Below the pieces are notes generated by a model. The model did not search any database. It had not been told where the DNA came from and saw only the letters and a list, made by a program, of their open reading frames with translations. 64,000 nt of DNA, from the NCBI GenBank assembly GCA_044892505.1, contig CM097883.1, positions 424,328,001 through 424,392,000 on the forward strand. Direction: 5' to 3'. Shown one piece after another: positions 31,127-57,165 of this stretch. The DNA comes from Schmidtea nova. Its lineage: Eukaryota. Every line of letters starts with the position of its first letter. Position 1 is the stretch's first letter. The position numbers and the translations under genes are program-made.

Positions 31127-31900
31127 ACTAGTGTTAGGTGGTATGGGTGTTGTTAAAAAAATTATTAACGATTTCTAAAATAAATAAATAAATAACGATT
31201 TCTAATACAACCCATACCGCAACACAAATATCAATCTAGCACATCCGTATACCCCAAGTAACTATGTTGGTACTGTACACGGTGGCGAGAATCTAGTGAG
31301 CAAGTGAGCTCCGTTGCCCAAACTACTTTTCACTATATTCTCTCTTTCGCGTTCTTGCTCCAGATAGAAGGACATACGCATCTGCTTACTTTTCGGTCCT
31401 ATCGCATGATTACCTCTTAACTTTCTATTACCTCCTGCTGTAAATATATACCTTTATTCATCCTCAAAAAACGTTATATATCAATTCAAAAACTGTTCCT
31501 ATCACTTTTTATTCATCCTCAAAACATTATATACCAATTCAAAAAATATTTCTATCAACTTTTATTCATCCAAATATTATTCACCAAAAGCATGAATACT
31601 CTTTGCAATCCTCTTTTCTCCCACCAAATTTGGTTCACAGTTCGCCGCATCGCCCACCTCCCAAAGGAGTTTGTCGTGAAAGACCACTTAGCGCCCATCT
31701 TGTTTCAAGACTATCAGGACGTGTCCTTATGAATTTTACCCCGGATGTTATGAGGGTTTACCCATAAATAAATAAACCAAAACAAATGAATATAAAATTT
31801 AAAACATTTATTAAATACCATTAAAATTCATATAAACTTACAAAATACCATCAAACTATGAATAAACCTAACTAAATCAAATATCTTTTACAAATTAGCA
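31127..31900 (+). mobile_element. Unclassified LTR-like repeat, copy A (contains conserved structured motif at 31266-31370)
   Basis: Interrupts the hAT frame between VVKL and NFISARALNK. Head ACTAGTGTTAGG. Homologous to 47576-47900 and to 51560-51900 (reverse complement). No clear TSD. Confidence 0.65.
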
Positions 31901-32648
31901 ATTAACTTTATATCTGCTCGAGCTTTAAATAAAGGAAAATTTCTTGAATTATTAAAAGAGGTAAGCTCAGTGAACAACGGTTTGCTCGTGTCAACCACAT
32001 TAGATGGTTAAGTCGCTGAAAATTACATAATGATCAGATTATTGAGAAACAAAATCAATTGAAAGACGATGAATGGCTTTCAAAATTAATGTTTTTCACA
32101 GATTTGTGTCTACATTTAAATGAATTAAATGTTAAACTACAAGGCTTCAACAAAATAATAATTGAGATTTTTGATTTAATAAAGGCATTCGAAGCCAAAT
32201 TACAAATCTTCAATCGTGATGTCGTTTCCTAGACCTTTAAAAAGTATTCAACACGTAAAGAATTCTTTTCAGATTTAGATTCAAATGAAAAGCTACATCA
32301 AGCCAATTTTAAACAGAAACTTTCTACAGTTATTCAGTCAATAAGTAATGAATTTTCTCTAAGGTTTCAACAGTTTCGACAATTGGCAGGAACAACAAAA
32401 TTTATTTTATATCCAGGCACAATATCAGCAGAAAAATTTAATTTGGATATTTTCTAGTGGTTGAATTTAGAAAAAATAGAGATGCAATTAATTGATTTTC
32501 AAAAAAGTTCTATTTGGAAGCAAAGGTTTGTCGAATTGAGAAACAACTTGAAAAAAATTGAAAAGGATCGATTACTGGTCGTAATAACAATAAGCACAGA
32601 AGATGAAATAGTGCAAACTTGGAATTCTAATCCCGAAACTTTCAGCTG

Positions 32649-35307
32649 TGTTGGGCCAGCCAAATAGGGTCTGAAAAGAAATAATTGAAAAAAATATAAA
32701 TAGAAAATAATAATTAAAAATAAATTACCTACGAAGACAATAGACAATATCTGGAATAAAAGAGAAATATCAATAAAACCAATGAAAATAAGATAGATTA
32801 CTAGATAAATCACCGGCGAATGTGGAAAGAGTTGGGGATACCTGAAAAATATAAAATTAGTAAAATATATTGAAAATTACAGCGATGAATGAAAATCACG
32901 GTTAAATCTGTCAGAGATTTTCTTTCGAGGTATGTCATTCTATCAGTGGACAGAGTTATTGACGACGATGACAAAAATAAACAACCGTCAGGTCAACTGG
33001 GAGAATTCGGAAATAGTCCCCGGCAGCCGGCGTGAATTCGAATATTTATCAGTGCATTAAATATTGTTTATGTTAGTAATGACGTGATTATCTGTTCGGT
33101 TGACTTGATAAGCGATATATATATATACCCGGCCTACCAAATGTCTTCAGTCAGACAGTTATTTACATATTGCAGTTTATAATGAACAGTTTATAATGAA
33201 CAGCGATGGGAACAAATGTCACAAACACGCACGCATACTGAATTCCTATAGTGCTGAGAGAGTTAGTACTTCGTTATATTACCTTTCATCTGGATAACAA
33301 GGCGCACTCGTTGAGGCATTGTATCTACCATTTTTGCCAGGAAATCAGGGGAGATGTGTGACCATTCCTCATGCAAATGCGTTTCCAGTTCGGAGACGTT
33401 ACGGGCAATGAGAATTTTTTTGCGAACTCGTTTATTAACGACGTCCCACAGAAACTCAACAGGACTCATATCAGGGCTTTGTGGAATCCAATCCAAAACG
33501 TTGATGCTGTGCTGCAGAAAGAATTCCTTCATAATGTGCAAAGTATGAATTGGTGCATTATCCTATTGGAAAATGAGCCCCTCAATTTCTGGGAGAAAGG
33601 GAAAAAGCTCATTTTCCAGAATGGCATGGTATTCCACTGACGTCATGTGATTTCTGCATTTGACTAGAGGGCCAGTTCCACGAGCTGAGAAAAGACTCCA
33701 AAACATGATGGAGCCTCCTACCTCAAGGTGAAATCGTTCTGCTACACGACGCCAGCAGAATTGTTGTCCATCAGATTTGAAAAGAGTGAAACGTGATTCA
33801 TCACTCCAAATGACTGACCACCATTGTTCTGCTTTCAAACTCCTTCTAATCCCAGCACCACTTCAAGCGATGACGACGAATTGTTTCTGTAAGGCTTCCT
33901 TGCGCAGTATCTGCTATAGAAACCATGAAAATTTAAAGCACGACGAATAGTGGACATGCTGGCATGCATAGGGCTAGTGTTTAATGTAGACACTAACTTG
34001 GACAGGGGGAACTGACGATGAACCATCACAAGTCGTTTCAGCTGCCGTTGTGTACGGATGCTCAGAAGTTTAGGGCGGTCTGAAAGTTGATTAATGACAT
34101 ATGTCTGCTCCTGGCGGTACTTCCTCATGAAGTAGTTAATAGTTTCTTTGGGATGGCCAGTCAATGTAGCAGTTTCACTCTGACTTTTTCCACAAAGATA
34201 ACATCCGTAAATAATGACTTTCTGACAGTCTGTGGGCTTTCTTCGAGTAGCCATATTCTAAGAAAATGACAATCCTTCATTAACATGATTCACTGTTATC
34301 ACTGTTGTGTGTCTGGTGTCAGTAGTCATATACTGTGCGTGTCTGTGTGTGAGAGTGTGTGTGTGCGCATGCGTGCGTGCGTGTGTATATGCATTATGTT
34401 GAAGGTGTTAGTGACCTTTGTTCCCATTACTGTTCATATTTGCATTGCCGATGTTCATTATAAACTGCAATATGTGAATAACTGTCTGACTGGATACTTT
34501 TGGTAGACTGGGGTATCTAAGTAAATGAATGAGGGTTGTAGTTGTACGGTGAATAATAACCGAAGTAATATTAATTTTTTAGGTAAGGAGAAAATAGACT
34601 TAAATTGATTATTATCGTTAACTATCGAATTAGGGGAGATTCGAGTTTTTCGATAAGTTAAATAAGATCCCGGTAGTTTTTCACGTAGACAGAATCAGTA
34701 GTTAAGTCAATAGAGAAAGGGGATCAGGACCCTTTGGATCCGGGTAGATCTAAATTTTTGAGGGCGATTGATAGAACAAAGTACATGGATGTTTTACTTG
34801 CAGATGCAGGAACAACTAGATGATCCTAAAGAAGCTCGACGACTGATCTCCAAACTGAGAAACAGGAACTAATCGCGGATTAAAGGAGCAACAATTGTTG
34901 GACATAATTTATCCTACTGTACTTACATGAATAAATGTATTATTTTGTGATTTAGTTTTGTGGTTGATTTTAATTAAGTTTTGGGCATGACCGAGAGTAC
35001 TTTGTTTGATAAAGTAGTTTAATTAAATTGAATTTTGGGAAAAGTAGTTTAGGTTATATAAAGAGACCAAGTCTACGACAAGATGAAGGTCTTCTATTGA
35101 CCGAATGAACCCGTATGGACAAGAAGGAAATAGTAACCGCCTAGGTTGCTCACCTGCTCTCTTGACATACACATGGTGGGGCAGTACCAACGTGAGGTGC
35201 AATTAGGGGTATCTATTGGGCACCATCGCGGGGTTTAAGATATTTTGTTGGTGGATTTGCCTTAATAAAAACACCAATAAAACTCATTCAATCCATCACA
35301 CACCAGT
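32649..35307 (-). mobile_element. Unclassified LTR-like repeat, copy C (~1.27 kb without the nested Tc1), solo-LTR-like
   Basis: Bounded by direct AGCTG (32644-48 / 35308-12). Removal restores hAT FSCLKK. Ends are TGTTGGG… and …CACACCAGT. Structured motif at 35095-35191 (minus strand). Confidence 0.7.
33128..34513 (-). mobile_element. Tc1-family (DD34E-type) transposon with ~110-bp TIRs; transposase disrupted
   Basis: TA-flanked TIRs (CTACCAAA..CAGTCAGACAGTTATT.ACATATTGCAGTTTATAATGAACA). Transposase 34254->33263: paired-like HTH, VIWSDESRF, GGSIMFWSLFS, FQ*DNAPIH (stop), WIPQSPDMSPVEFLW. Confidence 0.92.
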
Positions 35308-37801
35308 AGCTGTTTAAAAAAAAATTGGAAGGCTTCATTATCAATTATTTCATCAACATATGCTTGTAAATCCTTATTTTCGGTAAAAAATATTATAAAT
35401 AACAAATTCAGAAAAAGATTGAAAGATGAAACTAGTGCAGATTGCCTGTTATTAAAAGTGACAAAATATGAGCCGTATAAAAAGCTTTTGGCATCTAATA
35501 TACAACAGTATCCATCAAATTAATAAAAAATAAATTTAATTTGTATGGTTCTTGTTTTTATTTTTAAATATTTTCTTATTATTTATATATTTTGGAAATA
35601 CTAATGTTATTTGTATATTGTGGAATATGTTACTTTTTATTTTTTTTAATTAAAATGAATAATAAACCATGTTAATTTTGATTAATTTATAAGTTTACTT
35701 TTTCTTATAAACATTATGTGGCACGCTTGCAACGCTGTTACAAATATTTTTGAAGTTTTGACACGCGAAAAAAAAGTTTCGCCATCCCTGGTTTAGATCA
35801 TTTCGTTAAACTTTTCAGTAATTTTTTAACTCATTTTGCAAAGTCAATTGTAGAAGGAAATTTAATCGTTCAATAAGCTTTGAGTAATAGTTCATTTTTC
35901 ATCTTGTTCATGCTTTCCATCAAACTTATACTACCCGTTAAATGGAAAAAAACTGGGACTAACTGGCTCCATTTCTCCTTTTCGAGGTTCTTTGGAGATA
36001 ACTAGGCTCCGTTTGCGGTCAACCACGGTTCAACAAAGGTTCGACAAAAATAAATTCCGATATGGATTATAGGTTAAATTAAATATCTAAAACATATACA
36101 AATCGTAGCGGAAATGTCAACATCACATCTACGTGGAAATATAGGCATAGGAAATGGAAATTTTCAATAGTTAGAATATAACACCGATATAAGCGATTGA
36201 AATATAAAACATATGATCTAGAATTAAATCATAATATTAAGTCATTGAATTAACAAAGATTGGTTTGTTTGTAGTAGTACACTTGTCAGTATATTTGTGT
36301 ATTTTTGCATATATATTGGTAGTGTATTTGTGTTGATATACTTGTTAGCAGATTTGTAAGAGCCCGAAAGAGTCACCAATTGATGTAGGGACAATCGGGA
36401 TGCTTGATGTATGTATCTTGTGATGCGTGTGTTTATGAGTTAGTATTATGAGTTAGTACACGATAACAGTAAAGAACAAAACTAATCAGATTACAAATTG
36501 TATTAAAAAACAAATCAACAATTACTCACAGTATTTAGCTTAGGTTGGTTTAATTGTACGGTTTAGTTTGTTGGATAATATTTCGAATATAATTTTTTGT
36601 ATTTTCTTTGGTTAACTTTTCTATTTCTTTTGGATAATTAACACGGGATTATAATTTTTACTTTGTTGAATTTTCTTAATCAAGTACTAAAAGAATTATA
36701 AAAAATAAATCTTCTAAAAATAGGTTTTGTCTTCTTCAGTACTGGTTTCTCGGCAATTTGAAATATTTATCTTTTTTAATTTATTTCTTGAATTTGTCAG
36801 CTTTTAGGTTAGCCTTGGCAATTTCTTTGGTTTTAGTTTGGATTCCTTTTACTATTTTTTAGTTTTCCAATTTACTTGATTAAATATTAAGTCTTCTAAA
36901 TAGTTGTGTCTTCAAGTTAAATAACAAATCTTCTAGATATTAAATCTCCTAAATTGTCAAATTTTATTTTCCATCGATTTATTTATTTTGTGATTTGGCT
37001 TACTATAGTTATTTACTATGGTAAGCCAAATTCAAATTCATAATTTGAATTTTAATAACTATACGTCTAATTACAAAAATTAAAAAAATTAAAATTAACC
37101 ACGAAGGGGGGAAACATAACCACACAAAATCATGAACATTACACATGATCTAGAATTACATCATAATATTAAGTCATTGAATTAACAAAGGAAAGTTTAG
37201 CAGAGTATGACTCAAAAATATTTGAAATGTAACAAAATAGAAAATTCGTCCATCTGGTAACTGTTTATCAATAAATAAAATCTAATTTAACTTCTCAAAC
37301 AGTTTATATTTACCTGATTCAGCTGACTAAATGAATTCACGGGATAATCAGGCGTAAGAAATCTTCAGTCGTTTGTCTACAAAATTTTTACCTTTTATGT
37401 AGTTCCAGAAAAGCAAACTGGATAAACCTACACTTTCGTAGGAAAGTTCAAGAAAATTTACCAACGTCTCAGTCACCCATCAGCAAGCCATTCCAGAGAA
37501 TTGGATACAGAGAGGATTCCAGCGGATCCGAAATGGGGATCAGCTGCAAAAAACGGATACCAAGGGACTCCTAGCCACCACATCCATATTGGAACACAAA
37601 CTTATTGTGTATATACATTCAAATAAAAATCGAACTAATCCAGATTCTAGCGAAACTTCATCACGGATTAAGCTCCCTACTAGAACCCATCTCAAGGAAC
37701 AAATCCGATACATCATCCAATACAATACAAACAATTGTAATAAGATAAGTTAAAGAAATTCAAGCTTCCATAATTAACAAATTTGAAACCCTTAAAATAT
37801 A

Positions 37802-38001
37802 AAAGATGAACGTTTTTCGTTAGCATTAGTTGAATGGACACGAAATAGGTGATGTCTAAATGTAAGTGTTCTCTCGAAAAATCATGTTTGGAACATAGGC
37901 TTTGTTAGAAAAAATGGATCACTGCCAGCCAAAAAGTGTGTAGAATTTCCTGTTATTACAATGGAAACAAATAATTTATGTCTAGAGAAGGATATAGTTT
38001 C
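37802..38001 (+). pseudogene. hAT (Ac/ZBED-like) transposase fragment, part upstream of the Gypsy insertion
   Basis: RFSLALVEWTRNR*CLNVSV…WNIGFVRKNGSLPAKKCVE…LCLEKDIVS reads on in frame across the empty site into 42555-42762. Confidence 0.7.
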
Positions 38002-38132
38002 AGTAACTATCTTAATATCTGACATCAAAAATAAACAATTTAACAATTGAAAAACTTAATATTTATTTTTAAAAACAACTCCTTCTTGTTGATTATTTAA
38101 ACAACTTGTTTTTTAATAATCATTACATTACT
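38002..38132 (-). repeat. 3' LTR (131 bp, AGT…ACT)
   Basis: Identical to 42419-42549 by direct comparison. Confidence 0.96.
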
Positions 38133-38143
38133 TTCCCCTCCTC
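38133..38143 (-). promoter_or_regulatory. Polypurine tract GAGGAGGGGAA
   Basis: Immediately 5' of the 3' LTR on the minus strand, overlapping the integrase stop codon. Confidence 0.85.
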
Positions 38144-38699
38144 AACTTTGATGCCATCTCTTCAGCCATTCTATCCGTCTCGGTCGTCTAGCATCCGGAA
38201 ATTGTAGCTCGACCTGGTGTTCCGACAAAAATCTAACAATCTTATATGGTCCATCGTATTGTATGTCATTCTTATTCCTTCTGTGTGGCTCCCGTCGAAC
38301 CAATACTTCCTCCCCCACTTCAAAAGAACGTTTACCTCTTCGATCTTTTTCTAAAATTCTCATTCTATCTGCCGCTAGCTTAGCATTCTGAACCACTTTT
38401 TCGTCAACTCTTTGGCCTTTGATCTCCGATCCTTGTCCATTGGCATGAAGTGACACTTTCCGTCCATACACAATCTCAAATGGAGAATATTTAGTTGCGC
38501 TTTGGAACGTCGCATTGATGCTGAATTCCACCCTTGGAAGTATCTCGCACCATTCATATCGCCTGTTGTTACTAAGAATTGAAGTCACCAGTAGATCTCT
38601 CATCGTGCGAATTACTCTTTCTACCAATCCATTTGATTGATGTTGATATGGTGCTGAGAATTCTTGACGAATCCCTAAAACTTCGAATTTCTCTTTCAT
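38142..38699 (-). CDS. Gypsy integrase C-terminal part (catalytic E, GPY motif), separated from pol by a 1-nt frameshift
   Basis: SAPYQHQSNGLVERVIRTMR, SPFEIVYG, YDGPYKIV. Confidence 0.9.
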   Translation of the reverse strand: MKEKFEVLGIRQEFSAPYQHQSNGLVERVIRTMRDLLVTSILSNNRRYEWCEILPRVEFSINATFQSATKYSPFEIVYGRKVSLHANGQGSEIKGQRVDEKVVQNAKLAADRMRILEKDRRGKRSFEVGEEVLVRREPHRRNKNDIQYDGPYKIVRFLSEHQVELQFPDARRPRRIEWLKRWHQS

Positions 38700-41215
38700 A
38701 TATCTGCCTTCAAAATTTTTCCTCTGTCTGAAAGAATACTTTCTGGCTTTCCATATTTATAAATCCAATTATGAAGTATAATCCGGAATATCGTCATTTC
38801 GTCTTGCTTCTCTGTCGCAGTTAGGCATACTAATTTACTGAACCGATCTATTATGACAATCACATATCTCTTTCCGGACCTTGTCTTTTCCATGTGTGCT
38901 ACATCAACTACGATTTGTTCCAGAAACCCGTTACTTCCGCGTGGAATAAAAAGTTCTTTCGTTCTTCCTTGATCTATTTTCCTTCTCGCACATATACTAC
39001 ATTCTTTTACAACGTGTCTTACTGTTTCACACATCTTTGGCCAGAAAAAACTATTTTCCATGTAATGAAAGACTTTTTTTCCCCCCACATGACATAATTC
39101 TTCATGAATCTTCTTAACCAGTTGTTTTTGATGGCTCTCTGGAACTGCTACTAAATCATTGGATTCTCTCTCTACGGTAATTAAGTCATCGTTGATCTTC
39201 AATCTGTCTTTGTGAGCATATAGGAAAGATTTCTTGAAAAAATCTTCTTCCTCATTCAAAAATTCATTGATATAATTCCATGCTCCTTGAAACCCTTTGT
39301 CCTTCTTTTGTTCTTCCATAATTTTCATCATGGTGCCAGTTTTTTGTATCGAATTAATATATCGTACCCTAGCTCTCTCCTTCTTCGGCTCTTCGTGTTG
39401 TGTTTGACATTGTGCGCACAACATTCCTCCAATTCTCGACAATCCATCGGCATTCCCATGTTCTACTCCTTTCCGATACTGCAATTTAAAATTATATTCT
39501 GATAAGTTCACCATCCATGTTTGGAATTGTGGACTTATCGCTTTCTTTGTCGTATTCATAAATACCAGCGCCTTGTGGTCGGTTCTCGCTATGAACTCCT
39601 TCCCATATAAGTATTGACGAAAATAAGTAACAAACTCATGTAATGCCAGCAATTCCTTTCTGGTCACACAATACCCTTTTTCGTGTGCTGTGAGATGTCT
39701 CGACCCATACGCAATTACTACTTCTTTACCTTCCTCTGTGATTTGACTCAGAACGGCACCTACCGCTTCAAAACAAGCATCCGTATCTAAGACAAATACC
39801 CTGTCCATCCTAGGATAATCCAGTACAGGTGTTTTCATCAGGGCTTCTTTTAAATTCTCGAAACTTGTTTCACATTTTTGAGACCATTGTAAGGTCTTAT
39901 CACACCCCGTTGTTGCTGCATATAGTGGTGCTGCCAAACGCGCATAATCTTTGACAAATCTTCGATAGTAATTCGTCAGTCCCAAAAATGAGCGCAGTTG
40001 TTTCGCACATTTTGGTCTTGTAGCCTCCCTAATCACCCGTATCTTTTCTTCGTTAGTTTGAATCCCGAACTCACTCACGGTATGCCCTAAAAATATTAAC
40101 TTATCTTTGTAGATCTTACATTTCTCCGAATTTATCTTCACGCCAGTACTTCTGATTCTTTCAAAAACTTCTTTTAGCCGGCTGTCATGTTCCGATTTAT
40201 CCTTCCCGTATATGAGGATGTCATCTAAATATACCACCGCCCCATTAAAAAGAATACCTTCTAACATAGTGTTCATGAATCTCCGAAATGTAGCTGGAGC
40301 TGTTGTCAATCCGAACGGTAATCGCTCAAAACAAAACTGCCCGCTTTTCGTACTAAACGCGGTTTTCTCCTGTGACTCTGCTGCCAATGCCACTTGATAA
40401 TATGCTTGACCCAGATCCAATGATGAGAAAAACTTCGCTCCGGCCAAGCAATCCAGTAGCTGTGTGATATTCGGCATCGGAAAAGATTCCTTCTCTGTCA
40501 GACTATTTAGACTCCGATAATCCGCACACATTCTGATCGATCCGTCTTTCTTTCCTACTATGACTAATGGTGCGTTCCATGGGCTCTGACATCGCCTGAT
40601 CACCCTTGCTTCTACTAACTTTTGTATTAAGTCATCTACCTTCCGTTCCAGATGCATCGGTTGTCGTCGTGGATATTGCATCACAGGATTACCAGTCGTT
40701 TTAATTTTATGTACTACCGTCGTGGTATATCCTAAATCGAATTTGGTTGCCATAAATATTGAAGCAAAATCCGTGATTAATTTCTCGAGCTCGATATTTT
40801 CCTCTTTCAGCAAGTCTGTTTTCGCTTTTAATAGTCGGTCTTTGTCGTTGATGTTTGTCTTGATCTCATTGTCTTCAATACTTTTCACTTCCACCAGTTG
40901 TATGCCGAACGCTTTCATTGTATCTACTCCACCAATAAATCCTGGTCGAATATCCCTCATAACAACAATACATATGTTCCTCTGTTTTTGGTTCCATTTC
41001 GCCTCTACCATAGTACGTCCCAGTGGTCTTTTACTTCCTGGAAAAACGCCACAAATCGTCAAATCGCTTGCATCTAACCTCGGTTTTCCGATGTTTATCC
41101 ATGTTTCTTCATTCATCACTGATATTGATGCCCCCGAATCCCATAACATTTCTACTTCAACCGTATTAATAACCATCTTACTCCATTCTCTTCCATCGCT
41201 CGTCTGATACTTCAT
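38696..41215 (-). CDS. pol: Gypsy Pol (aspartic protease, RT, RNase H, integrase N-terminus and core); likely expressed by -1 frameshift from gag
   Basis: LWDSGASISVM, SPWNAPLVIV, RMCADYRSLN, PFGLTTAPATF, VYLDDILI, LDTDAC, IARTDHKAL, HEELCH…CSIC, VVDVAH, ILSDRG. Confidence 0.95.
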   Translation of the reverse strand: MKYQTSDGREWSKMVINTVEVEMLWDSGASISVMNEETWINIGKPRLDASDLTICGVFPGSKRPLGRTMVEAKWNQKQRNICIVVMRDIRPGFIGGVDTMKAFGIQLVEVKSIEDNEIKTNINDKDRLLKAKTDLLKEENIELEKLITDFASIFMATKFDLGYTTTVVHKIKTTGNPVMQYPRRQPMHLERKVDDLIQKLVEARVIRRCQSPWNAPLVIVGKKDGSIRMCADYRSLNSLTEKESFPMPNITQLLDCLAGAKFFSSLDLGQAYYQVALAAESQEKTAFSTKSGQFCFERLPFGLTTAPATFRRFMNTMLEGILFNGAVVYLDDILIYGKDKSEHDSRLKEVFERIRSTGVKINSEKCKIYKDKLIFLGHTVSEFGIQTNEEKIRVIREATRPKCAKQLRSFLGLTNYYRRFVKDYARLAAPLYAATTGCDKTLQWSQKCETSFENLKEALMKTPVLDYPRMDRVFVLDTDACFEAVGAVLSQITEEGKEVVIAYGSRHLTAHEKGYCVTRKELLALHEFVTYFRQYLYGKEFIARTDHKALVFMNTTKKAISPQFQTWMVNLSEYNFKLQYRKGVEHGNADGLSRIGGMLCAQCQTQHEEPKKERARVRYINSIQKTGTMMKIMEEQKKDKGFQGAWNYINEFLNEEEDFFKKSFLYAHKDRLKINDDLITVERESNDLVAVPESHQKQLVKKIHEELCHVGGKKVFHYMENSFFWPKMCETVRHVVKECSICARRKIDQGRTKELFIPRGSNGFLEQIVVDVAHMEKTRSGKRYVIVIIDRFSKLVCLTATEKQDEMTIFRIILHNWIYKYGKPESILSDRGKILKADI

Positions 41216-41229
41216 GCTTCTTCTCCTGT

Positions 41230-41302
41230 CATTTCGATTTTCTTCATTTATATCTGCGATCCCATTGACGAAATGTGTGCGATGGGATCGTTGGCATTTT
41301 TT
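41230..41302 (-). promoter_or_regulatory. Predicted -1 programmed ribosomal frameshift signal (A AAA AAU plus H-type pseudoknot)
   Basis: Slippery heptamer at 41302-41296 in the gag frame, 5-nt spacer, 9-bp stem CGAUCCCAU/AUGGGAUCG, and loop CAUUUCG complementary to downstream CGAAAUG. The pol frame is -1 and open across the site. Confidence 0.75.
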
Positions 41303-41967
41303 CTTACTTCTACTTCATGTGGTTGACACTCACTTCCGTATTCATCTCTAAAATCATAAATATTTATCTGCTGATCCTCCATTTCTTCGTGTATACATGA
41401 TATCTTCTTGACGTTGGTGTTGTAACCTCGTCGTTCATTCAGAAGGTTACAATTTCTAAAATTGTGTCCGTTCTTCCCGCAAATCAAACATTTATCCTTT
41501 AAAGGGCATTCAAAACGCCTATGTCCTTCTTCTCCGCAACAAAAACATTGACCTGATTTGAGTTCGCATGGCCTTGGTTCTGGTAACCCCATATGTCTGT
41601 TGTATAACCGTTTGGCTATATGTTTCAGAGATACAGTTGGCATCTTCTTTTCACCCGTCTGCTGTCCTTTCCATCTTTGGGACTCTGGTTGTTCATATCT
41701 TCCGTATTCCACTTTGTTTTCGAAACTTCTGGGTTCTTTCCGTATATATGGTCTTTGCTTTCCTCTCTCCGATTCCTCTCGATTTCTTAGACCCTCTTTG
41801 AATTTTTCCGCATATGACATTGGTTTCACTGCCAAAATTTCTTCAGATCTGTCCTCTGTTTTCTCATAAATTTTTGCTAAATCATTTCTCTCTTTGTGAT
41901 CCATCTTAGGTTTCGTCGTAAGTACCTCTTTTAATCTTTTATCTCTCACTGTGCATAATAATCTCAC
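41248..41967 (-). CDS. gag: Gypsy Gag C-terminal part with two CCHC zinc knuckles
   Basis: CFCCGEEGHRRFEC and CLICGKNGHNFRNC. Confidence 0.9.
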   Translation of the reverse strand: MRLLCTVRDKRLKEVLTTKPKMDHKERNDLAKIYEKTEDRSEEILAVKPMSYAEKFKEGLRNREESERGKQRPYIRKEPRSFENKVEYGRYEQPESQRWKGQQTGEKKMPTVSLKHIAKRLYNRHMGLPEPRPCELKSGQCFCCGEEGHRRFECPLKDKCLICGKNGHNFRNCNLLNERRGYNTNVKKISCIHEEMEDQQINIYDFRDEYGSECQPHEVEVRKNANDPIAHISSMGSQI

Positions 41968-42442
41968 TTACGATTTCTTCCTTTGACAATCCTGAATATA
42001 AAACTTCTTCCACGATTTTGAGAACTCGAATCTCGAAAGTAGCAAAACGTTCGTTGTCATCTTGTCTGATAGTTGAAAGATCCTTGATTTTATCTAATAT
42101 TGACTTTTTTATAGTGAATGTTTCTATAAACCATTCTCTAGCATCATCCTCTGATGTGTCTTCGGTTTTGAAATTCTTCCACAAGATTGACGCTTCTTCC
42201 GATAACAACAAATCAAAAGCTTCCGTCCGTTTTAGATCATTTCTTATAATCCACTCATCGATCGCTTTAATCCATTTTTCTGCTTCCTTAGCGCATCTTC
42301 CATCGTATCTACGAATTTCAACGTCTAAGATTTCTTGAGCCTTCTTTGGTAAAACATCTCTTGCTGATTTCTTATCTTGGCTACGTGTTTTAACTGCGTT
42401 AATTTCGGCGTGGTCGCCAGTAACTATCTTAATATCTGACAT
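41939..42442 (-). CDS. gag: Gypsy Gag N-terminal part (start codon inside the 5' LTR)
   Basis: Open frame MSDIKIVTGDHAEIN…RYDGRCAKEAEKWIKAID…RQDDNERFATFEIRV. It overlaps the C-terminal gag ORF in a different frame. Confidence 0.75.
   Translation of the reverse strand: MSDIKIVTGDHAEINAVKTRSQDKKSARDVLPKKAQEILDVEIRRYDGRCAKEAEKWIKAIDEWIIRNDLKRTEAFDLLLSEEASILWKNFKTEDTSEDDAREWFIETFTIKKSILDKIKDLSTIRQDDNERFATFEIRVLKIVEEVLYSGLSKEEIVSEIIMHSER
42409..42419 (-). promoter_or_regulatory. Primer-binding site TGGCGACCACG (tRNA-Arg-like), overlapping the LTR by 1 nt
   Basis: TGG-starting sequence directly at the 5' LTR end, complementary to a tRNA 3' end …CGUGGUCGCCA. The Arg(UCG) assignment is from recollection of that acceptor stem and was not verified. 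Confidence 0.75.
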
Positions 42443-42549
42443 CAAAAATAAACAATTTAACAATTGAAAAACTTAATATTTATTTTTAAAAACAACTCCT
42501 TCTTGTTGATTATTTAAACAACTTGTTTTTTAATAATCATTACATTACT
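42419..42549 (-). repeat. 5' LTR (131 bp)
   Basis: Identical to 38002-38132. Confidence 0.96.
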
Positions 42550-42554
42550 GTTTC

Positions 42555-47158: not shown

Positions 47159-47575
47159 GGGTATTGCTATAATTACTTAGTTTATTAGTTTTTATTGTTA
47201 TTATTAAAATATCAAAGTTTTATTAATTATCTGCAATTTGTGAATAATAAAACTTTTTTAGTACTTCATAACAATGTCCAGTAGATTCTCGCTTATTCGT
47301 GAGAATCTGAAACTAAATATACATTCAATTTTAAATAAACCCTTGAATAATCAAAGTTTATGTCCTAATGTTTAGCGTCGTCTGATATTCCTCTTCAAAA
47401 ACATCTTTCTAAAAGGCCGACATCTTAGTTGTTTTCTCCAGAATAATCAAGCTGGTGATGTAATCATACGAGAAAATTCCTTTTGATTCCACCACAACAT
47501 TTAAATCAAAAACTTTTCAAGTTATTGGTATTCCTTTCAGTGTCTTAGCCACTTTGGATAGTGAATTACTAACAA

Positions 47576-48030
47576 ACTGGTGTTTAGGAGTATGGGAAGC
47601 TACGAAATTATTATTGATCTCCAGGGATTACAACACCCAACACCCAATCATAAATATTAACTGACTCACTCGTGTACCCTTAATTACACCTTGATACTAA
47701 GTTGGTAATGTACACGGTGGTGAGAATCTAGTGACCAGGTGATCTTCGTTTCCAAAACTACTCATCACTATATTCATTCTTTCGGGTTCCTGTTGCCGAT
47801 AAAAGGACTTACGCACATATCTATTTTATGGTCCTTTCGCGTGATTAATTCCTATCTTTCTATCTCTTTATCCTATTTCAGATCCCTCTTATTTATTCCC
47901 CAAAAACACCTAAATAACTCCCCTTCATTCCCTCTTTCCCTCGCTACTCTATATAATTTAATAATACGATGGTACGAAGACTCTAACCTATTAATCGATA
48001 AAGTAAACTCACTAGAGTTTACTGATTAAA
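47576..48030 (+). repeat. Unclassified LTR-like repeat, copy B (structured motif at 47701-47805)
   Basis: Head ACTGGTGTTTAGG and ~200 bp of clear similarity to copy A. The right end is approximate. Confidence 0.6.
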
Positions 48031-49164
48031 TATATGTATTTTATCTCGTCTTATCGTTTTTTATTTAAGATATAAAATTTTGGATAAATAATTAAATGTT
48101 TTTATATTGATTTGCAAAAATTAAATCTTTAAGGTAACATGTAAGATAAATAATAATATTATTTATTGTTAAACTTTAAAAAATATATTTGACTTTTAAT
48201 CAACACAATATTATAGAAAAATTTCTTCTAGAACAATTTGTTTTACTGCATCAACGAAAATAACAGTCTGAAACAACTATATATACCACCATCAAAATAG
48301 AAATCGCCAGAATTTGCTTAATATTTTCAAGAAAACTTTACACAGAATGTGCAACTACCAAACGGGAGCTCCTATCAAAGGCGGATCTCTACAAAGTTTT
48401 TACAGAGAATTTGCCGAAATCTTTGAAGAATTTGTGAAAAATTTCCAGAATAAAAGCTCTACCAGAATTTATATTCTACTTACTGGAAAAGAGAGCTCCA
48501 TACTATGAACCTAACTCAACTCACCCCGAAAGAACCAAAAGTTTCAGAACATCAACTGCTTACAGAGATTAAGGACCTCGAAGAGAAAAGTTTTCATTTT
48601 TGAGAAAAACCTCCTTTGATTGTAACAATTTCCACTCTCAGAGAACCAGCGAATATTCAATATGTAAGGATTATTCCTGTAAAATGGCAGGAAACCATCG
48701 AGATCATGCCCATCGACTGTCTCTTGCTTAGTATTTTAATTATCATTTATCTTTATTTTGGGATTTGGTTACATTGTTATTAATAATTTTACTTTTTAAC
48801 TTTTATGATGAAAAATTTTGGTATGATTTTTATGTTTTATTCTAATAATTATATATTTCATCTATCATATGGTGTTCTCATTTTATAAACTAAACTAAAG
48901 CGATTTGTCATAAGAACTACTCTAATTAATAAGTTCAAGATTTGTCACATTTTACCCTCCTCAATATCATTGAACATAAATCTTAAACATTAATATCATT
49001 TATTACGATATATTCATAAATTAAGGGCCAGACAGGCAACAATTAAGGATAACAACAAATTAAATTATATATAGAAAAAATATACATACCTACTGCATAT
49101 TAGGACAAAGATGAAATAAACGTGAGAAAATATTACTAATAGAAGTAATAAACGGGGTGAAACA

Positions 49165-49350
49165 GTATAAAATGCTTGTCGTCATATAGTTCCTTTCTAA
49201 ACCCCATAGAAAGTTTATTTAGTAAATTAAAAGGCGCTATCAGACAAGATGTTGCGGCAACCAAAGGATGGAGTACCATTGATTACAAAATTTGAATGGA
49301 ATCAGTCAAAAGGTTTGTGGAGGAAGAATAAGAAAAAGGATCTTCCCAAA
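49165..49350 (+). pseudogene. Tc1/IS630-like transposase C-terminal fragment
   Basis: CLSSYSSFLNPIESLFSKLKGAIR resembles LPPYSPFLNPIE..FSK.K. Confidence 0.6.
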
Positions 49351-50223
49351 GTCTTCATTCAAAGAGGAAATCTTGGGGGACATATAAATAAGCAGATGTA
49401 ATTTAATTGCCGAATAAAAATTATAATAACTTACCTTTTCAATAATTCATAAATATCTAATAAATATATTTATAAAATAAATAGATACTTAACTTAAAAT
49501 ATTAAATAAAATATGTAATTAAATTAAAATATGTTAAAACAGCTTTAAAAAATGAATAACAAAACATAATAAATAATAATTACTCACCAATTACCTGTAA
49601 TAAGTGTCTTTGTGGCCCTTAATTAAATACTGTTGGTGTATAAGAACTCACTTACGATAATAATAAGCAACCAATCGGTACGTCTTTACTTTTAAAATCT
49701 GTTTGAGATGAGAATATAGTTTTTATATAATTTTCTTCTAATTATTTGATTAAAAAGGGGGTGCCATCAACGATCTAATTCTTAATACAATATTTAAAGT
49801 AGAAAATTTCTATATATTTAAATAATAGGAAACTTGAATGTTTTAGAAATTTTAGATTTGTTGTAACAATCGTTGCAGTTGTCAAGGCCTCGGCAAAAGA
49901 TTTAAAATTCAACTGTGAAATTTTTTGTAAAAATGTTAAAATAATTTACAATACAAGATAGACATTAAGTTTAATATATAAATAGAGTTTTAATTAAATT
50001 TTTAACATAAAATTCCAGAAATTGAATTATCATGGAAATAATAGTTAATTCGGATAAAATAATAGCAATCAAATATCCCCGAATGTATACGATTTTACGG
50101 AGGACTAATCCTGAATTGAGTAGTGATGTTGAATAAATATTTAATAATTGATAATATGAATATGCATGACTGTAGGAGTTGGATGGATAATTATTATTAA
50201 ATTGTATATGTTTGTTTAGTAAA

Positions 50224-50777
50224 ATGGAATACAAGATAGACCAGATGATGACACAATTGACTGAAATGCACAGAAGCATGCGGCATCTGACAGCCCGCGA
50301 AGCAGAGATGGAAGAGGAAAATAATCTCCCTATGTAGAACTCCGACTGATAACGAAGCGGATGGAGAAATTTCGCTCTTGGTTCCAGAAAGTGAATTCTA
50401 CTTGGACAAATGTGGAGGGCATCGAGAAGATGCGAAAGCAGAATAGAATATTACAGGAGCAAGCTTCAGAAGACGCGTTCCAACTGCACGCGGTATAAAT
50501 GACCGTGAAACAACGGGACGCGGAGATTGCCTAATTTAAAATCGACACCGGAATTGTCTTGGCACTGCAATCCAAGATGAAATTTCCCACTCTGGAGTTG
50601 TTTCCAGTACGGGCTGGAGAAGCGGTACTTGCGCAAAGGCCAGTTGTCGATCGCCCAAAGAAATGGTTACCCAGCAAAGGAGTTCGTGCCCGACGAAAAC
50701 GACGCCAGGAAGCTCGACTCCTAAGGCAGTTCTGTAAAGTGTCGGTTGAGACGATCGACCTGTCTATCACTGATTGA
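50224..50777 (+). pseudogene. Disrupted orphan ORF (~185 codons; coiled-coil-like N-terminus, Arg-rich C-terminus) in a GC-richer island
   Basis: MEYKIDQMMTQLTEMHRSMRHL…(frameshift)…KRMEKFRSWFQKVN…(2 TAA)…GVRARRKRRQEARLLRQFC. The family was not recognised. Confidence 0.45.
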
Positions 50778-51097
50778 CAACGAACTATTTATGTACATAT
50801 CTTGTCTATATAATTATAAATATTGTCTTTATCAAACCATTTTTAAGATTGAATGAATGGATTGATTGATGTCATGTTTGTTTGAATAATGCCTAACAAA
50901 AATCAATAAACAACGAATTTTTAGTAAATGCCTAAGACATATTTCTTCGTTATTTTTAATTAAATCGCCTGATAACAAATCGTCATAGATCTTGAGACAA
51001 ATTACCATGACATGATTTTCTTTCTGGTAATCATCGTTTAAACTTCAGCAGCAGATCATAAGGTTAATCTTAAGTAGGAGACAAAATGGGCGCGAAA

Positions 51098-51313
51098 CCT
51101 TCTATCTGTAGCCCTTGAACTCATGAGATGTTCGGTCAATCATAGTTTAGAATTTTCGACGCTCACTGATTACGAATATCCACCCATTTGTTGCATTACC
51201 AACATTACATTGTGACGGGCAACCAGATGGTTAAACTAATGTTTTGTATGTTGAATTGTTGATGTAAGCCATAGCAACGTCAAGGTCATATTGACGAATA
51301 ACAACCCACCAGT
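51098..51313 (-). repeat. Unclassified LTR-like repeat, copy F (structured motif at 51098-51203)
   Basis: Head ACTGGTG at 51313. The motif is closest to copy E (56882-56990). Confidence 0.6.
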
Positions 51314-51559
51314 AGTCATTTAGAAATTGTTATGTAATGCTTAATAAATATTTTGAATTTGGTTGTTGGTTAAAGCTCAGTCTCATTTGATTGTCCCAAT
51401 ATACCTGATTCATGAGTAGCTCTGTCATCCCAACAGCCACTATTTTCGATTTGGTTAGAGAATCTTGAACCAAATAGTCGAGGTGAGTCTTCTGACCATC
51501 GTGTTAGTAATTATATAGACTGGTTGGGGTAAGAGAACAAATGAATGTTATTTAAGATA

Positions 51560-51900
51560 TTTGGGGGAATTAATATGCATACAGGTTAAGTATCATAAAA
51601 TTGCGATATAGGAATTCAGGACCCGATATATTCAAGAGAACCTTTGAAAGATAGAGTAATTACAATTGTAAAACCTTCTATCAGCAGCAGGAACCCAAAA
51701 GAGAGAATACAATGAGTAGTTTTGGTGACAAAACTAACCTGCTTATTGAATTCTCGCACCACTGTGTACGTTACCAACATAGTTTACCAAGAAGAATCTA
51801 TGGGTACATAAATGAGGAGTTCAACATTTTCGTGATTGTACGTGGGTTACAGTAATCCTTAGAAAAACAGCTTTTAACAACCTATACACCAACACAAGGT
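51560..51900 (-). repeat. Unclassified LTR-like repeat, copy D (structured motif at 51675-51778)
   Basis: Reverse complement reads ACTATGTTGGTAACGTACACAGTGG…GAGAAT…CCAAAACTAC…ATTCTC…GGGTTC…GATAGAAGG, like copies A and B. Confidence 0.65.
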
Positions 51901-52591
51901 TCACTTTTTGGGAGTATCAACCAAATAGTTAAGATTACCAACGTTGCTTTGCGGCGGGTAACTACTGGTTATATAATAATTACGAAGTTACTATAGCAAT
52001 GATCACCTATAGAGACCGATAATTATCATTGATTGTTGAGTAAAGGGTATCGTGAAAAATAAAGCATAATAAAGTTAAGTCTCTAATAAAATATTTGATT
52101 TTGAAAAATAAAATAATTGTTTGATATACGTTAGGGTTGAACTATTACCGATTATATATTATACGATAAAGCTTTAATCAAAATTTTCACCGATCATTTA
52201 CTAATAATGAAATATAAAAATTAGCAAAATTAATTTAAAACAAAGAATTATTAGATTATAAATTAACACTATTAAATTTCATTGTTATATTTATAATTAT
52301 AACTTTTTTAATGTTTAATTAGTTTTAAAAAAATAAAGTAAATTTTAAAATTAAAAACTTATTAATACTTCAAAAATGAGAACCTTGGTTTTCAAAGTTA
52401 AATGAAATAAATTATTTTGAACAAAGTTGTTTAAATAAATAAATTAATTGAATATTTTTTGTCTATTTATTTTACAGTATGTTAATTAATAATAATTCAT
52501 TTCAATTAAAATTTAAAGTTTAAATTTTTATTTTATAATAAAGCTGTGAATTAATTTCTGATTTCTGATATGAATTTTAGGTTAATTTGAA

Positions 52592-53203
52592 ATGAAATCA
52601 CATAAATTATTGAGCTATTGTGAAAATAATACAGATTCCGATTTTGAAGAATATTTACCTCCGATGAAAATAAAGAAAAAAAATCATGAAAAACGAAAAG
52701 AATCGTCTGAAGATACTGACCCATCATATATAAATACAGATGAGTTTAATATAAAAATAAAATCCAAATCAAATAATCAATCGACTGATAAAGTGAAACC
52801 AAAAGAAAGTAAATTAGAAAAAGTCAAAACTAAAAAGAATTTAAAAAGTGATCCAAACACAAATAAAGAAAATGTAGATAAGTTATCTAAAAATTATGAT
52901 ATTACTTCTCGCGTGACGAAACAAATCAATAATAAATCAAAAGAAATATCCAAAATGGAAAATACCGCAAAACCTCTAGAAATATGTGGGGAAACTGAAT
53001 TTTTTACTGGTATTCCTTTATTCAAACCTTCAGTTTCAAAAGAATCTGATAATCATCCGATAAATCCAATAATTTCTCAAAATACGTCGAATTTAAACAA
53101 TAATACAATATCGACTGCAAAATGTAAACTTATCACAACACATTTGAGAGTCGGTTTGTCTCGTAAGCAGCGAATTTCTAAACCACTTCATTCTAAATTT
53201 TAA
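52592..53203 (+). CDS. RAD51AP1-like protein (203 aa, Lys-rich and disordered, with C-terminal RAD51-interacting-type motif)
   Basis: Intact ORF with an upstream in-frame stop. C-terminal HLRVGLSRKQRISKPLH resembles RAD51AP1 LRLGLSRLARVKPLH. N-terminal KSHKLLSYCENNTDSDF resembles RAD51AP1 RHKKPVNYSQFDHSDSDDDF. A splice-acceptor-like TTTTAG lies 11 nt upstream. Confidence 0.6.
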   Translation: MKSHKLLSYCENNTDSDFEEYLPPMKIKKKNHEKRKESSEDTDPSYINTDEFNIKIKSKSNNQSTDKVKPKESKLEKVKTKKNLKSDPNTNKENVDKLSKNYDITSRVTKQINNKSKEISKMENTAKPLEICGETEFFTGIPLFKPSVSKESDNHPINPIISQNTSNLNNNTISTAKCKLITTHLRVGLSRKQRISKPLHSKF

Positions 53204-53902
53204 GCAATTTTATTGTATAATGTTTAATAGATGTTTAATAATTGCTTTATTAAGTTAAGAAATTTGACATAAAAAGCTCATTTTTTAATGCATGTTTAAT
53301 TGAATAAATTAACAATCAACTACAGAAAAATTTGCTGTTTAAATGTATTGGAAATATTTGATTTCTGCCATCTGAATTTTTACCAGATTTTATCATTCAT
53401 ATTTGTTTTCTATTTTCGAGCTTTGTTTTTTCTACTACATTTTTATTCTCAATTTTTCTTTTGTTAATTATCTTTATTGTTTTTTCTTTTCAATTGATTT
53501 TGGTAGCAAATTTTATTAATTTTTCTATATTTCTTCGAATGATTTTTTTGTTCTGAATATATTTCTTCGATTTCAAAAAGAAATTTATCTTTTTTTTACA
53601 TTTTGTCATATTCTTTTGAAAAAAATTAAAATTTCCAATATTTATCGAAGGTTTATGATATTCTTTTAATGATTCTCTCGTTTCGTATTTCACGTAGTTT
53701 GTAAATATTTCTGCTATGCATCGTGCTTATTTCACTGAATAAATTATGTTTTTTTCGGAAAGTTCCACAAAGTAACAATGACAATCGGGCTGATTATCGG
53801 GATAATTGCTAATCAACCGGTGCCGGTTATTAAAGATCAATAATTCAGAATACTATCTAATTCAGCATTTATTTTGACGACAATAAATATAAATTTAGTG
53901 TA

Positions 53903-55805
53903 CCATATTTTCACGCATATAACCCGCGGGTTATACAAGTTTTTACAAACAAATGGTCGCTGTGCGGGGTATACAAAAATAATTTTACTCATAAAACTTT
54001 TACCTTCAATAGAGGTTCACGCATTTATCCACTGTGTTAAAATCTGTAGTTTCGCTGTGTGGTTCTCAAATGTAAAACGAATAACTTTATGAACATCTCA
54101 TTAGAAGTAAATTTACAAATAATACACGTTTAGAAAACAAGTAATACGGATGCGGCAGAGAACATTTAATATAATTAATTGCCATAAGTAAGCAAGTAAA
54201 CCAATACGCCAGTAATGTCTAAACCTATAGTCCACATTTCATGCAATACATCCATAATCAATCACCATTACTATCACTGTCCTCGCTACAGTTAGTGAAG
54301 CCATCGAAACTTGTATCTTATTCACTGTCGTCATCAAGGAAGCGAAGCATGTTGGCAGCAGTAGTTGGGACATAAATTCACTCTTCATCACTATCATCAT
54401 CGTCAGCTGAATCGAAACATTCCTCTGCTGCTGGCTCTGCATTAACTTCACTACCGGTTACCATTAGCAGGCCAGCCTTAATGAAACCGTTGCGAATAAT
54501 TTCTGTGCTGATTTGCTGCCAGAACCCATTTGCATACTTCAACGTACGTAGCACGTCTCTGCTTTCCAGCTAGTGTGAATTTGTGTTCGCCTTCACTCAT
54601 CCATTTTTCCCATTCATTGCGGACAAAACACTTGAATGGATGATTAACAGCAATATCAAGTGGCTGAAGCTTACATGTTAAACCGCAGGGAATGACAGCA
54701 ATGTGAGCACCAGTCTTATTGATCTGTTTGTGAACAGATGTCTCCTTGTGTGCAGCCATTGCATCAAAAATTAACAACGATTTTGGCATCAAGAATCCAC
54801 CCTATCTAACACGATAGCATCTTTCAGTCCACTCTTTCATCACATCAGTGTTCATCCATCCTTTTTTGTTACACACAACAATCACTCCTTGTGGCAGATT
54901 CTCAAGTGGCATTGTCACTCGTTTGAATATAACCATTGGTTTCAACTTCTCACCAGCAGCTGAGCATGCCAGGGCAACTGTGAAACATGTGCGCTCATGT
55001 CCAGTTGTGGTAATAGGAACCGTTTTAGAACCAGTATCTGCGACAGTGCGAGTTGCTGGAATATCAAAAGACATAAGCACCTCATCCATGTTAATAACAT
55101 CGCAAGGATTTAAGTTCTGTTCTGCTATATCTCTTCTTACAAATTCCTGAAAGTCGTCTACTTTCTTCTCCCAATTCTCTGGCAGTTTCTGCCCAATCGT
55201 TGTGCGTGCACGAACGGAAAGTTGATTAGGTTTCATGAATATAAAAACCAAGTTGATGCCACCAGTGAAATTATCTATCTTCATTTCAGCAGTCATTATT
55301 TTCGCTTTCAATTTAATACCAACTGTTGACACTGCCTTGTTGTTCTCATGCAGAGAGCGAACCCATACTGAAAGGTTTGTCTCAAGCTGCTACCATCTAA
55401 CCTTTTCCCCTCGACGAGCTCTTTTGCGTGGATTAATCTGCTCTAAACTTTTAATGTCTTTTTGCCATTCACGAAGAGATTATTCACCAACATCATGCTG
55501 TCTCCCAGCGGCTCTATTGCCCATTGTAGCAGCAAGCGCACAAACCTGTAGCTTAAAATCAGCGGTATAAGTCTTGCGCTTTGGCATTTTTAGGCTTAAT
55601 AAACACTACTGAATACCTATAATGAATGTTAATGATTATTTAATGATTAATGATTAGTTAACCTTGTACATATGCGGGGTATACATGGGTGCGGGTTATA
55701 CTATTTTCTTTTTACTTATTATGTAATTTGTGCGGGTTATACGTAGTGCGGGTTATACGCGTATGCGGTTATACGCGTATGCGGGTTATATGCGCGAAAA
55801 TACGG
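53903..55805 (-). mobile_element. pogo-family (POGK-like) DNA transposon with a disrupted transposase
   Basis: TA-flanked 25-bp TIRs CCATATTTTCACGCATATAACCCGC / GCGGGTTATATGCGCGAAAATACGG. Transposase starts at 55587: MPKRKTYTADFKLQV…GNRAAGR (Brinker-like DBD), NMDEV, IFDAMAAH…LQPLD (35 residues between the last two Asp). Two stops and at least one frameshift. Confidence 0.92.
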
Positions 55806-55892
55806 TAATTATTTATTGATGGTACCATAGCAAGATCAAATCCTGTGGTGACCAAGTAACTGGTTTTAACCAGTAGTTACTCGTCGTAAGCA

Positions 55893-55996
55893 ATGGTAAT
55901 GTAACTATTGGAGAAAATACTTGCAGTGTTAATCCTGTTACCAGAACTATAATTGATCGATTAATTTCTACGGGTTCAAGAGCTATCCGTAGAAGA
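55893..55996 (+). repeat. Structured motif, copy G
   Basis: ATGGTAATG…GAACTATAATTGA…GGGTTC…CGTAGAAG, with the same spacing as the other copies. Confidence 0.5.
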
Positions 55997-56756
55997 TATG
56001 TGCTCATTCTGATGTTTGGTCCCTTTCTTTCATATTAACGCTTAAAACCCTTCTTAACTCATTCTTTAACTTTTAATGATTACGTTATTCTTTTTATCCG
56101 AGAAAATCAAACTATATTATATCTAAAGATTAACGGTTTCATTATCTAGTTATAGGATTATTGTTGTATGGGAATTTTATAACTTTATGTGTCTAATGAA
56201 TAAGGCTAAGATAATGACGAATTTCTAATTTTCATCCTAAAATAAAAAGATACCTGAAAAATGTGGCAAGATTAGGTAAATCCTGCTACTAAAGACAAAT
56301 TAAGAGCAAAAGAAAATCAATAATAATGTTGTTACTGTTAACTAAAAGTAGGTTGATCAGATTCACAATTTAGGTTATCCTGCATGGGCGAGTTATCAAT
56401 ATTATAGCTTAATGCATTTTATTTATTTTAGAAGTTTACCCTCGTTTTCTCTCGGATTTCGTAATTTTTCGACCTCTCATAGATAGTTGGAAAATTTTCT
56501 ATCGCTGAAGGATTTTTACACGAAGTTACATTTGTGAGTTTTGATTAAAATATATGTTTTAGACTTATTTTATTGTTTTATTTGAATAATTAAATTAAAT
56601 AAGAATTTATATCTCCTAAAGATGTTTGATAAATTCATTTCTTTGCTAATGTAAATGTTGAATTGTGACTAATTATTTGTTGGATTCGTAGTAATTTTAT
56701 CATAAAATATTCACTAAGAAATATCAAACTATTTATAATTTTTGATTTTAGATTTC

Positions 56757-57100
56757 ACTTGTGATCACAAAACTTGCATTCCATCTAGTGAGAATACGCG
56801 AAAGCTCATTACCGTGGTTCCATCCAATAACCTTGCATATAAACCTTGACCAAACCAAATTGTTATTCGTTACAGTGTAAAGTTGGTACTGCAACAAATG
56901 GGTGGACATTCGCAAAAGGTGACTGATGAATCAATCGAAACTATAATTGACCGAATGTCGCGGGTGGGTTCAAAGGTGACCGATAGACCGTACTTTGCCA
57001 AGTTTCGTCCCTTTATGTACCATAAGTATGACTACGACTGAATTTCTCGAGTAAATCGACTTTAACTCATTTATTAACTCAGGTGTTAATTACTGTGTAA
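56757..57100 (+). repeat. Unclassified LTR-like repeat, copy E (structured motif at 56882-56990)
   Basis: Head ACTTGTG, then GTTGGTACTG…GACATTCG/CGAATGTC stem…GGGTTC…GATAGA. Confidence 0.6.
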
Positions 57101-57165
57101 TTTTGTATTTCCTCTTCACACGTACTGCTTGTATATAAAAATTAATAAATTTATGGATATAACTA

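Follow-up and report, generated by a model that had tools for sequence, protein, structure and literature searches.

In Schmidtea nova, a high-copy mobile repeat comprising several diverged families has conserved a folded motif of about 105 nt immediately inside its fixed end, and there is roughly an even chance that this motif represents a folded subterminal domain of non-autonomous rolling-circle (Helitron-type) elements, acting in the displaced strand. The analysis covered a 64-kb window of contig CM097883.1 (assembly GCA_044892505.1, positions 424,328,001 to 424,392,000; coordinates below are those of the window), three public read runs mapped over 47300-52200, and the literature. The window is animal-like DNA of 29% G+C carrying a histone deacetylase exon together with remains of hAT, Tc1/pogo and long terminal repeat (LTR) retrotransposon elements. 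We refer to the motif copies as c1 (31266), c2 (35191), c3 (47701), c4 (51203), c5 (51778), c6 (55893) and c7 (56882), to a truncated eighth copy as x, and to the strand opposite to that used in an earlier, sequence-only reading of this DNA as the top strand.

A profile built from the seven copies recovers all of them at E 1e-17 to 1e-27 (next match E 6.9), confirming the positions and strands at which the sequence-only reading had placed them. With leave-one-out profiles six of the seven are recovered at E <= 5e-6, c2 being marginal at E 0.96. The copies share 43-81% pairwise identity and fall into four lineages, A (c1, c3, c5), B (c4, c7), c2 alone and c6 alone, with c2 the most diverged. 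A covariance model that had not been trained on x matches this copy at 51834-51971(+) with E 3e-4. The site near 11986, once suspected to be a decayed eighth copy, shares the first heptamer only and is matched by neither profile. A three-box pattern derived from these same copies occurs seven times, whereas 200 block shuffles contain it 0.005 times on average. The boxes reported as common to all copies are not kept in every one: read on the strand of that report, several copies deviate, with GCGTTC in c1, GAGTTC in c4, ATGGTA in c6, no AAACTA in c2 and no GTGA in c6 or c5, and the distance from the first box to GGGTTC, given as 78-83 nt, measures 79-84 nt. Pattern scans outside the window produced 12 (loose) or 0 (strict) occurrences in viral contigs, one in metagenomes and one in prokaryote genomes, with no homologue confirmed; none of 13 such loci was matched by the profile (best E 0.36), and loci L013 and L014 were not matched by the covariance model. 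This absence of outside homologues says little because the scanned collections contain little animal DNA.

Read along the top strand, a CTTCTATC box is followed by a GAACCC box, a long stem (P2) and a TACCAAC box, then by a short hairpin, which carries a GGG(T/C)A box, and finally by the element end. Pairing between a copy's own 5' and 3' arms beats that of shuffled arms in five of the seven copies (p 0.001-0.022), with c2 at p 0.076 and c6 showing no significant pairing (p 0.18). The mean arm-pairing score is 20.8 for own arms and 13.8 between lineages. Two compensatory double changes separate c5 from c1 and c3, and one separates c4 from c7. Placing the c1 stem on a sequence-only alignment yielded 12 double-change cells compared to 5.7 in shuffles (0/500), and slid registers of this stem pair at no more than 44% versus 67% in the true register; this test leans towards c1, the source of the structure, and a formal test would need more than four lineages. 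All six stems listed in the sequence-only reading are present, but they are not seven independent cases because there are only four lineages. Selection on the long stem is modestly supported. A further hairpin upstream of the CTTCTATC box (P4) was significant against shuffles in none of the seven copies, and pair counts on alignment A3 were not used, 12 of its 20 rows being chance matches fitted to the model.

Folding also bears on the choice of strand. The top strand has the lower folding z-score in five of seven copies both for the motif alone (c1 -2.85, c5 -3.02) and for the 290-nt end region, the latter with RNA and DNA energies alike, and an RNAalifold consensus contains 13 pairs on the top strand and 0 on the other; the neutral count of G.T versus A.C mismatches (21:15) is not significant (P 0.41). 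The functional strand is probably the top strand, with RNA or single-stranded DNA (ssDNA) as the acting molecule, and the strand on which the motif had originally been described is probably the wrong one. When the motif is read on the top strand, the 'head' sequence formerly placed about 100-140 bp away in six copies, and measured in six copies at 108-137 nt upstream of the motif as first described, becomes the 3' terminus.

The families are alike in this 3' region and unlike upstream. In six copies (c1-c5 and c7) the short hairpin is followed by about 90 further bases and then CAC(C/T/A)AG; x and c6 are shorter at this end by about 90 nt, finishing in CTGG directly after the short hairpin. 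The resulting 3' end types are CTAG (c1), CTGG (x, c6), CCAG (c2, c3, c4) and CAAG (c5, c7), and the end-adjacent base is T in seven of the eight window copies, as for insertion before T. The string of hairpin, GGGTAAC and CTGG before T, a pattern chosen afterwards, occurs twice in the window, in x, where the 6-bp hairpin lies 9 nt before CTGG, and at the Helitron end at 7668 (shuffle mean 0.23). The c6 end aligns to the canonical Helitron end with p 0.007, one among 32 comparisons. Both c4 and c7 retain a decayed short end internally, as end bypass would leave behind, and bypass in Helraiser creates new ends, including non-CTRR ones (PMC4778049, partial text). At the other side, the homology of c3 and c5 stops at TCGA, preceded by A in c3 and by G in c5, the boundary, and with it the 5' end of c3, being placed where their alignment stops. 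The T after the end, the CTGG ends of x and c6, the TC starts of c3 (after A) and c5, and the duplication of 0-1 bp at c1 would together speak for a Helitron-type element, an assignment we regard as evenly balanced.

Motif copies, elements and reference features in the window
Feature	Coordinates	Strand	Remarks
c1, whole element, lineage A	31128..31893	-	in hAT transposase gene; 3' CACTAG before T; 5' end without TC, boundary +/- ~5 nt; duplication 0-1 bp
c1 motif	31266..31371	-	CTTCTATC box, GAAC(G)C box, long stem P2 at 31287-31341, TACCAAC box
c2 composite	32650..35307	+	~1.25 kb plus nested Tc1-like element 33114-34526; same hAT gene as c1; 3' CACCAGT
c2 flanks	32644-32649, 35308-35313		6-bp direct repeat
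c2 motif	35086..35191	+	most diverged lineage
c3, lineage A	47577..47998	-	~420 bp; TC after A at 47998, CACCAG before T at 47577; motif 47701-47806; no duplication seen
c4, 3' part, lineage B (high-copy family)	51072..51312	+	motif 51098-51203; family terminus in reads 51311
c5, lineage A	51478..51898	+	TC at 51478, end CACAAG; motif 51675-51778; inside or against x
c5 direct repeat	51468 and 51919		11 bp
x, truncated eighth copy	51899..51968	+	TTACCAAC box, 6-bp hairpin, GGGTAAC, CTGG before T (Helitron-type end)
c6	55870..55998	-	motif, then directly CTGG before T at 55870; another possible end, CCAG before T, 10 nt beyond; stem weak
c7, 3' part, lineage B	56758..56990	-	motif 56882-56990; end CACAAG before T at 56758; sole copy with a hammerhead-core-like string (on +)
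Canonical non-autonomous Helitron	6979..7668	+	TC after A, hairpin, GGGTAAC, CTAG before T; no motif; in-window reference for ends

In the mapped reads of the three runs, 155, 127 and 112 contigs have loose ends at 51311, which mark a sharp element end with unrelated flanks because they agree at only 0.41; at 51127/51153 the family continues and it is c4 that has drifted, since loose ends there agree at 0.68-0.86. Dividing peak summed depth by locus-specific contig depth gives about 4-6 x 10^4 copies for lineage B, 1.2-1.9 x 10^3 for lineage A and 50-90 for x, ratios to be read as orders of magnitude and not as true copy numbers. The sharp common terminus, the very high read depth, the insertions in a hAT gene described below and the compensatory stem support the earlier proposal of a structured cis element in a non-coding mobile family. 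In some contigs a lineage B end is closely followed, with orientation unchanged, by part of a copy of lineage A, of x or of a further B element, which may reflect chance at such copy number or a nesting preference. A separate high-copy repeat with short inverted ends (49020-49620) reaches a summed depth of 160,000 in run X1.

On the molecular level, a rolling-circle mechanism could proceed as follows. A RepHel transposase supplied in trans would peel off the top strand 5' to 3', with the short hairpin as the original terminator and the longer ends as products of bypass. The motif, exposed last and beside the terminator, would then fold in ssDNA, and its two fixed boxes, held at the foot of a stem free in sequence, could form a loading site that would most likely prime the second strand of the circle or otherwise pause the transposase. 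A replication or priming signal would be the best candidate function. The single-strand origins of bacterial rolling-circle plasmids are folded, strand-specific domains located where the displaced strand is exposed last. The likeness of the motif to these origins would lie in fold and position, and the available text of PMC5876387 names none for Helitrons. The same text reports that Helraiser circles act only in double-stranded form and that ssDNA circles were not converted after transfection; two models, fork-coupled synthesis and a circovirus-like primer, have been proposed there for the step from ssDNA to double-stranded DNA. We consider it rather unlikely, though conceivable, that the motif would serve a eukaryotic rolling-circle transposon as its dedicated single-strand origin, recruiting host primase, or a primer RNA if the two boxes are complementary to tRNA D- and T-loop-like sequence, and converting the ssDNA circle to the double-stranded DNA needed for Helitron transposition.

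Several observations weigh against a Helitron-type assignment. Strict CTRR is found at only three of the eight ends, and in the reads the base after CACCA is often other than G. Among the six copies with long ends, the predicted terminal hairpin outperforms composition shuffles in only one, and the strand asymmetry of folding is larger with RNA than with DNA energies. No RepHel remnant was detected in the 14 open reading frames or 26 frames scanned in the window. In addition, Helraiser needs only its own ends and the terminator hairpin, and fork-coupled lagging-strand synthesis would require no dedicated origin (PMC5876387, partial text). The main evidence against a plain Helitron, which is at the same time the main evidence for target-primed reverse transcription, comes from a single decayed hAT (GTF2IRD2/SPIN-like) transposase gene at ~30000-35520 (+), which c1 and, oriented the other way, the c2 composite both interrupt. 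Neither of the two 5' ends mapped there begins with TC, and at c2 the hAT frame stops and resumes on the same serine, with 6 bp duplicated around the 2.66-kb composite ending in c2's end. c1 splits a K-x-x-N segment, in which K and N are two residues apart in all four hAT homologues, so that the c1 duplication is limited to 0-1 bp; for a duplication of 7 bp (one mismatch) to be read there, this hAT would have to have carried an additional codon. The 11-bp direct repeat flanking c5 could stem from a duplication, with 20 nt of extension, or belong to x itself, and an exact duplication scan (6-9 bp, 3.2 kb) gave none for c4, c5 and c7 and, for c1 and c3, matches away from the element boundaries.

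Variable duplications of this kind are known for Replitron-1 and some Chlamydomonas Helitrons (PMC10288648, partial text). The elements are not filed as Helitron because three defining features are inconclusive. Compared with Helitron1 (HLE1, Helraiser-type; lepidopteran Hel-2), they are likewise short, non-coding and high-copy with T after the end, and the hairpin before CTGG in x, the A before TC in c3, the lack of a duplication at c1 and the documented formation of new ends by bypass fit as well; unlike Helitron1, they have CCAG or CAAG at five of eight ends, the duplication at c2 and two mapped 5' ends that lack TC. The Helitron1 structures named in the available literature are the 3' hairpin, a 5' inverted repeat and subterminal inverted repeats; a boxed stem of 105 nt within the 3' end is not among them.

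The foremost alternative to a rolling-circle domain is retroposition by target-primed reverse transcription, in which non-autonomous or 5'-truncated Penelope-like elements, or elements dependent on a long interspersed nuclear element (LINE), would carry the fold as the RNA 3' end where reverse transcriptase binds and starts. This reading is a possible but tentative one. It would account for duplications that vary from 6 bp at c2 to 0-1 bp at c1 and possibly 10-11 bp at c5, for one fixed end opposite dissimilar ones, for the stronger folding asymmetry with RNA energies, and for open-frame remnants and AATAAA upstream of the motif on the same strand. Such remnants lie on the top strand in c2, which has short open frames and the AATAAA, and in c4, whose lower-copy upstream part with a broken open frame extends to ~49900; they could be captured sequence or the element's own gene. 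However, none of the 26 window frames, including those upstream of the motif, has a Pfam match above cut-off or a reverse transcriptase or GIY-YIG remnant, no poly(A), microsatellite or other tail is present at the element ends, and self-comparison of the window showed no pseudo-LTR and no tandem or inverted truncated partners. The Helitron-like ends of x and c6 and the TC-starting boundary shared by c3 and c5 also stand against it, as does the location of the c7 hammerhead core string on the other strand. Penelope-like elements (Naiad and canonical) share with the copies a fixed 3' end, variable 5' ends and duplications and a structured RNA near the 3' end, and differ in possessing reverse transcriptase and endonuclease and a pseudo-LTR; the hammerhead core is present here in one of seven copies, on the opposite strand. 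Two candidate frames gave no lead: no homologue was found for the c4 upstream frame, and the 48-aa frame of c2 had nothing above 0.78 in Atlas, its phmmer match being dismissed as 15 residues added up across the repeats of a DEAD-box protein that looks misassembled. The broken c4 frame (~49900-50780, +, ~190 codons) has a coiled-coil-like start and a basic end, with a depth of ~50-90x single copy. The window contains no autonomous partner that we could find.

Another HUH or recombinase element, whether Replitron-like, Helentron (HLE2) or of IS605/Fanzor type with a guide-RNA scaffold at the right end, appears distinctly unlikely. An omega-RNA looks like a structured domain at one element end. 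In Replitron-1, variable duplications occur together with a hairpin and fuzzy borders at the right end (PMC10288648, partial text), which would reconcile c1, c2 and c5; the comparison with Replitron-1/N1 extends to a possible fuzzy end at c5, but the copies are without terminal direct repeats, as seen at c2, and Replitrons are reported from algae, plants and protists in the available text of PMC10288648, which reports no animal ones. The Helentron variant is opposed by the lack of 11-18 bp terminal or subterminal inverted repeats and of a TT target (none at c2, a partial 9-nt match at c1). DINE-1/HINE elements (non-autonomous Helentrons, HLE2) are also present at very high copy number, and the DINE-1 core is conserved across diverged families (PMC4067079, partial text), whereas our copies are without the 11-18 bp subterminal inverted repeats, the two-end T-run, and the shared central tandem repeats or microsatellite. 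The window frames scanned contain no remnant of TnpB or Rep.

It is very unlikely that the copies are solo LTRs or terminal-repeat retrotransposon in miniature (TRIM)-like units with the motif as an LTR RNA packaging or priming structure. Either strand of c1 and c2 can be read as having TG/CA-like ends, a string that starts with TGG and resembles a primer-binding site follows a TATA-like box in c3 and c5, and a 5-6 bp duplication at c2 fits an integrase. Yet at c2 CA is separated from the duplication by two extra bases, no duplication length is constant given the absence of 4-6 bp at c1 (0-1 bp), the lengths range from 420 to 1250 bp with unrelated distal parts, and neither paired LTRs nor an internal domain were seen. 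The 36-nt block holding the TATA-like box and the TGG-starting string is kept at the distal end of c3 (47948-47984) and c5 (51485-51520), and in c5 a perfect splice-donor-like GGTGAGT lies beside it on the opposite strand.

Least probable of all, and close to negligible, is a degenerate hammerhead ribozyme or tRNA-derived RNA polymerase III (Pol III) unit; the sequence-only reading had listed an unrecognised ribozyme or a Pol III-like RNA among its candidates. Hammerheads are recognised by CUGAnGA and GAAA adjoining stems I-III and by an NUH cleavage site (PMC10085705, partial text). c7 has CTGATGA, 7 nt and GAAAC, for which the chance is ~1.5% over seven copies; nevertheless the core occurs in one of seven copies and on one of 14 strands, that of the original description, and in c7 there is no U before the cleavage site, hence no valid triplet, no stem II closing pair, and a stem I 10 nt from the core. 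Rfam 15 gave no hit at gathering score and no match on any copy up to E 10, and ARAGORN found no tRNA on the copies. A selenocysteine insertion sequence was dropped by eye, as there is no GA on the 3' side of RTGA. The two main boxes resemble tRNA D- and T-loop sequence. A Pol III promoter of this type has a B box, with the consensus GWTCRANNC, downstream of its A box, and such a B box is absent from all seven motifs.

Other features of the window were noted in passing. A single exon of 370 codons at 8178-9290 (+) encodes almost the entire class II histone deacetylase domain, with the canonical Helitron at 6979-7668 about 500 bp upstream. A young LTR retrotransposon at 38001-42549 (-) has two identical 132-bp LTRs and reverse transcriptase, RNase H and integrase domains in frameshifted frames. 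A third dispersed repeat (57164-57700, 62524-63007 and 48063-48315) lies directly distal to c3 and c7. An isolated hairpin at 9892-9940, without a profile match, has arms that open with the first heptamer of the motif and close with the complement of that heptamer, and an AT-rich hairpin at 45741-45802 matches mir-753 below threshold (33 bits versus a gathering score of 62). A sigma-70 promoter scan stayed at chance level and is irrelevant here.

Conserved cores and secondary structures are already known in Helitron-like repeats (cores: PMC4067079). Full-text searches of the literature, together with the available parts of PMC4067079, PMC5876387, PMC10288648, PMC10085705, PMC6765202, PMC11417382, PMC4778049, PMC9977147, PMC4344730 and PMC8557442, gave no description of this motif, and Repbase, Dfam or supplementary repeat libraries may already contain these families; five 9-10-mers had no match in the PMC8557442 supplement, which apparently contains little DNA text. 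If the motif were merely inherited terminal sequence, it would belong to an ordinary new repeat family. If the elements were retroposed, it would be a tail-less 3' RNA recognition structure for reverse transcriptase; if they move by rolling-circle replication, a natural, portable 105-nt domain beside the terminator would make the conversion of the displaced strand testable. Under either of these two readings, the motif marks one of this genome's most abundant repeat groups, and should it be a single-strand origin, selection would explain both why it survives across families sharing less than 50% identity and why its carriers reach such extreme copy numbers.

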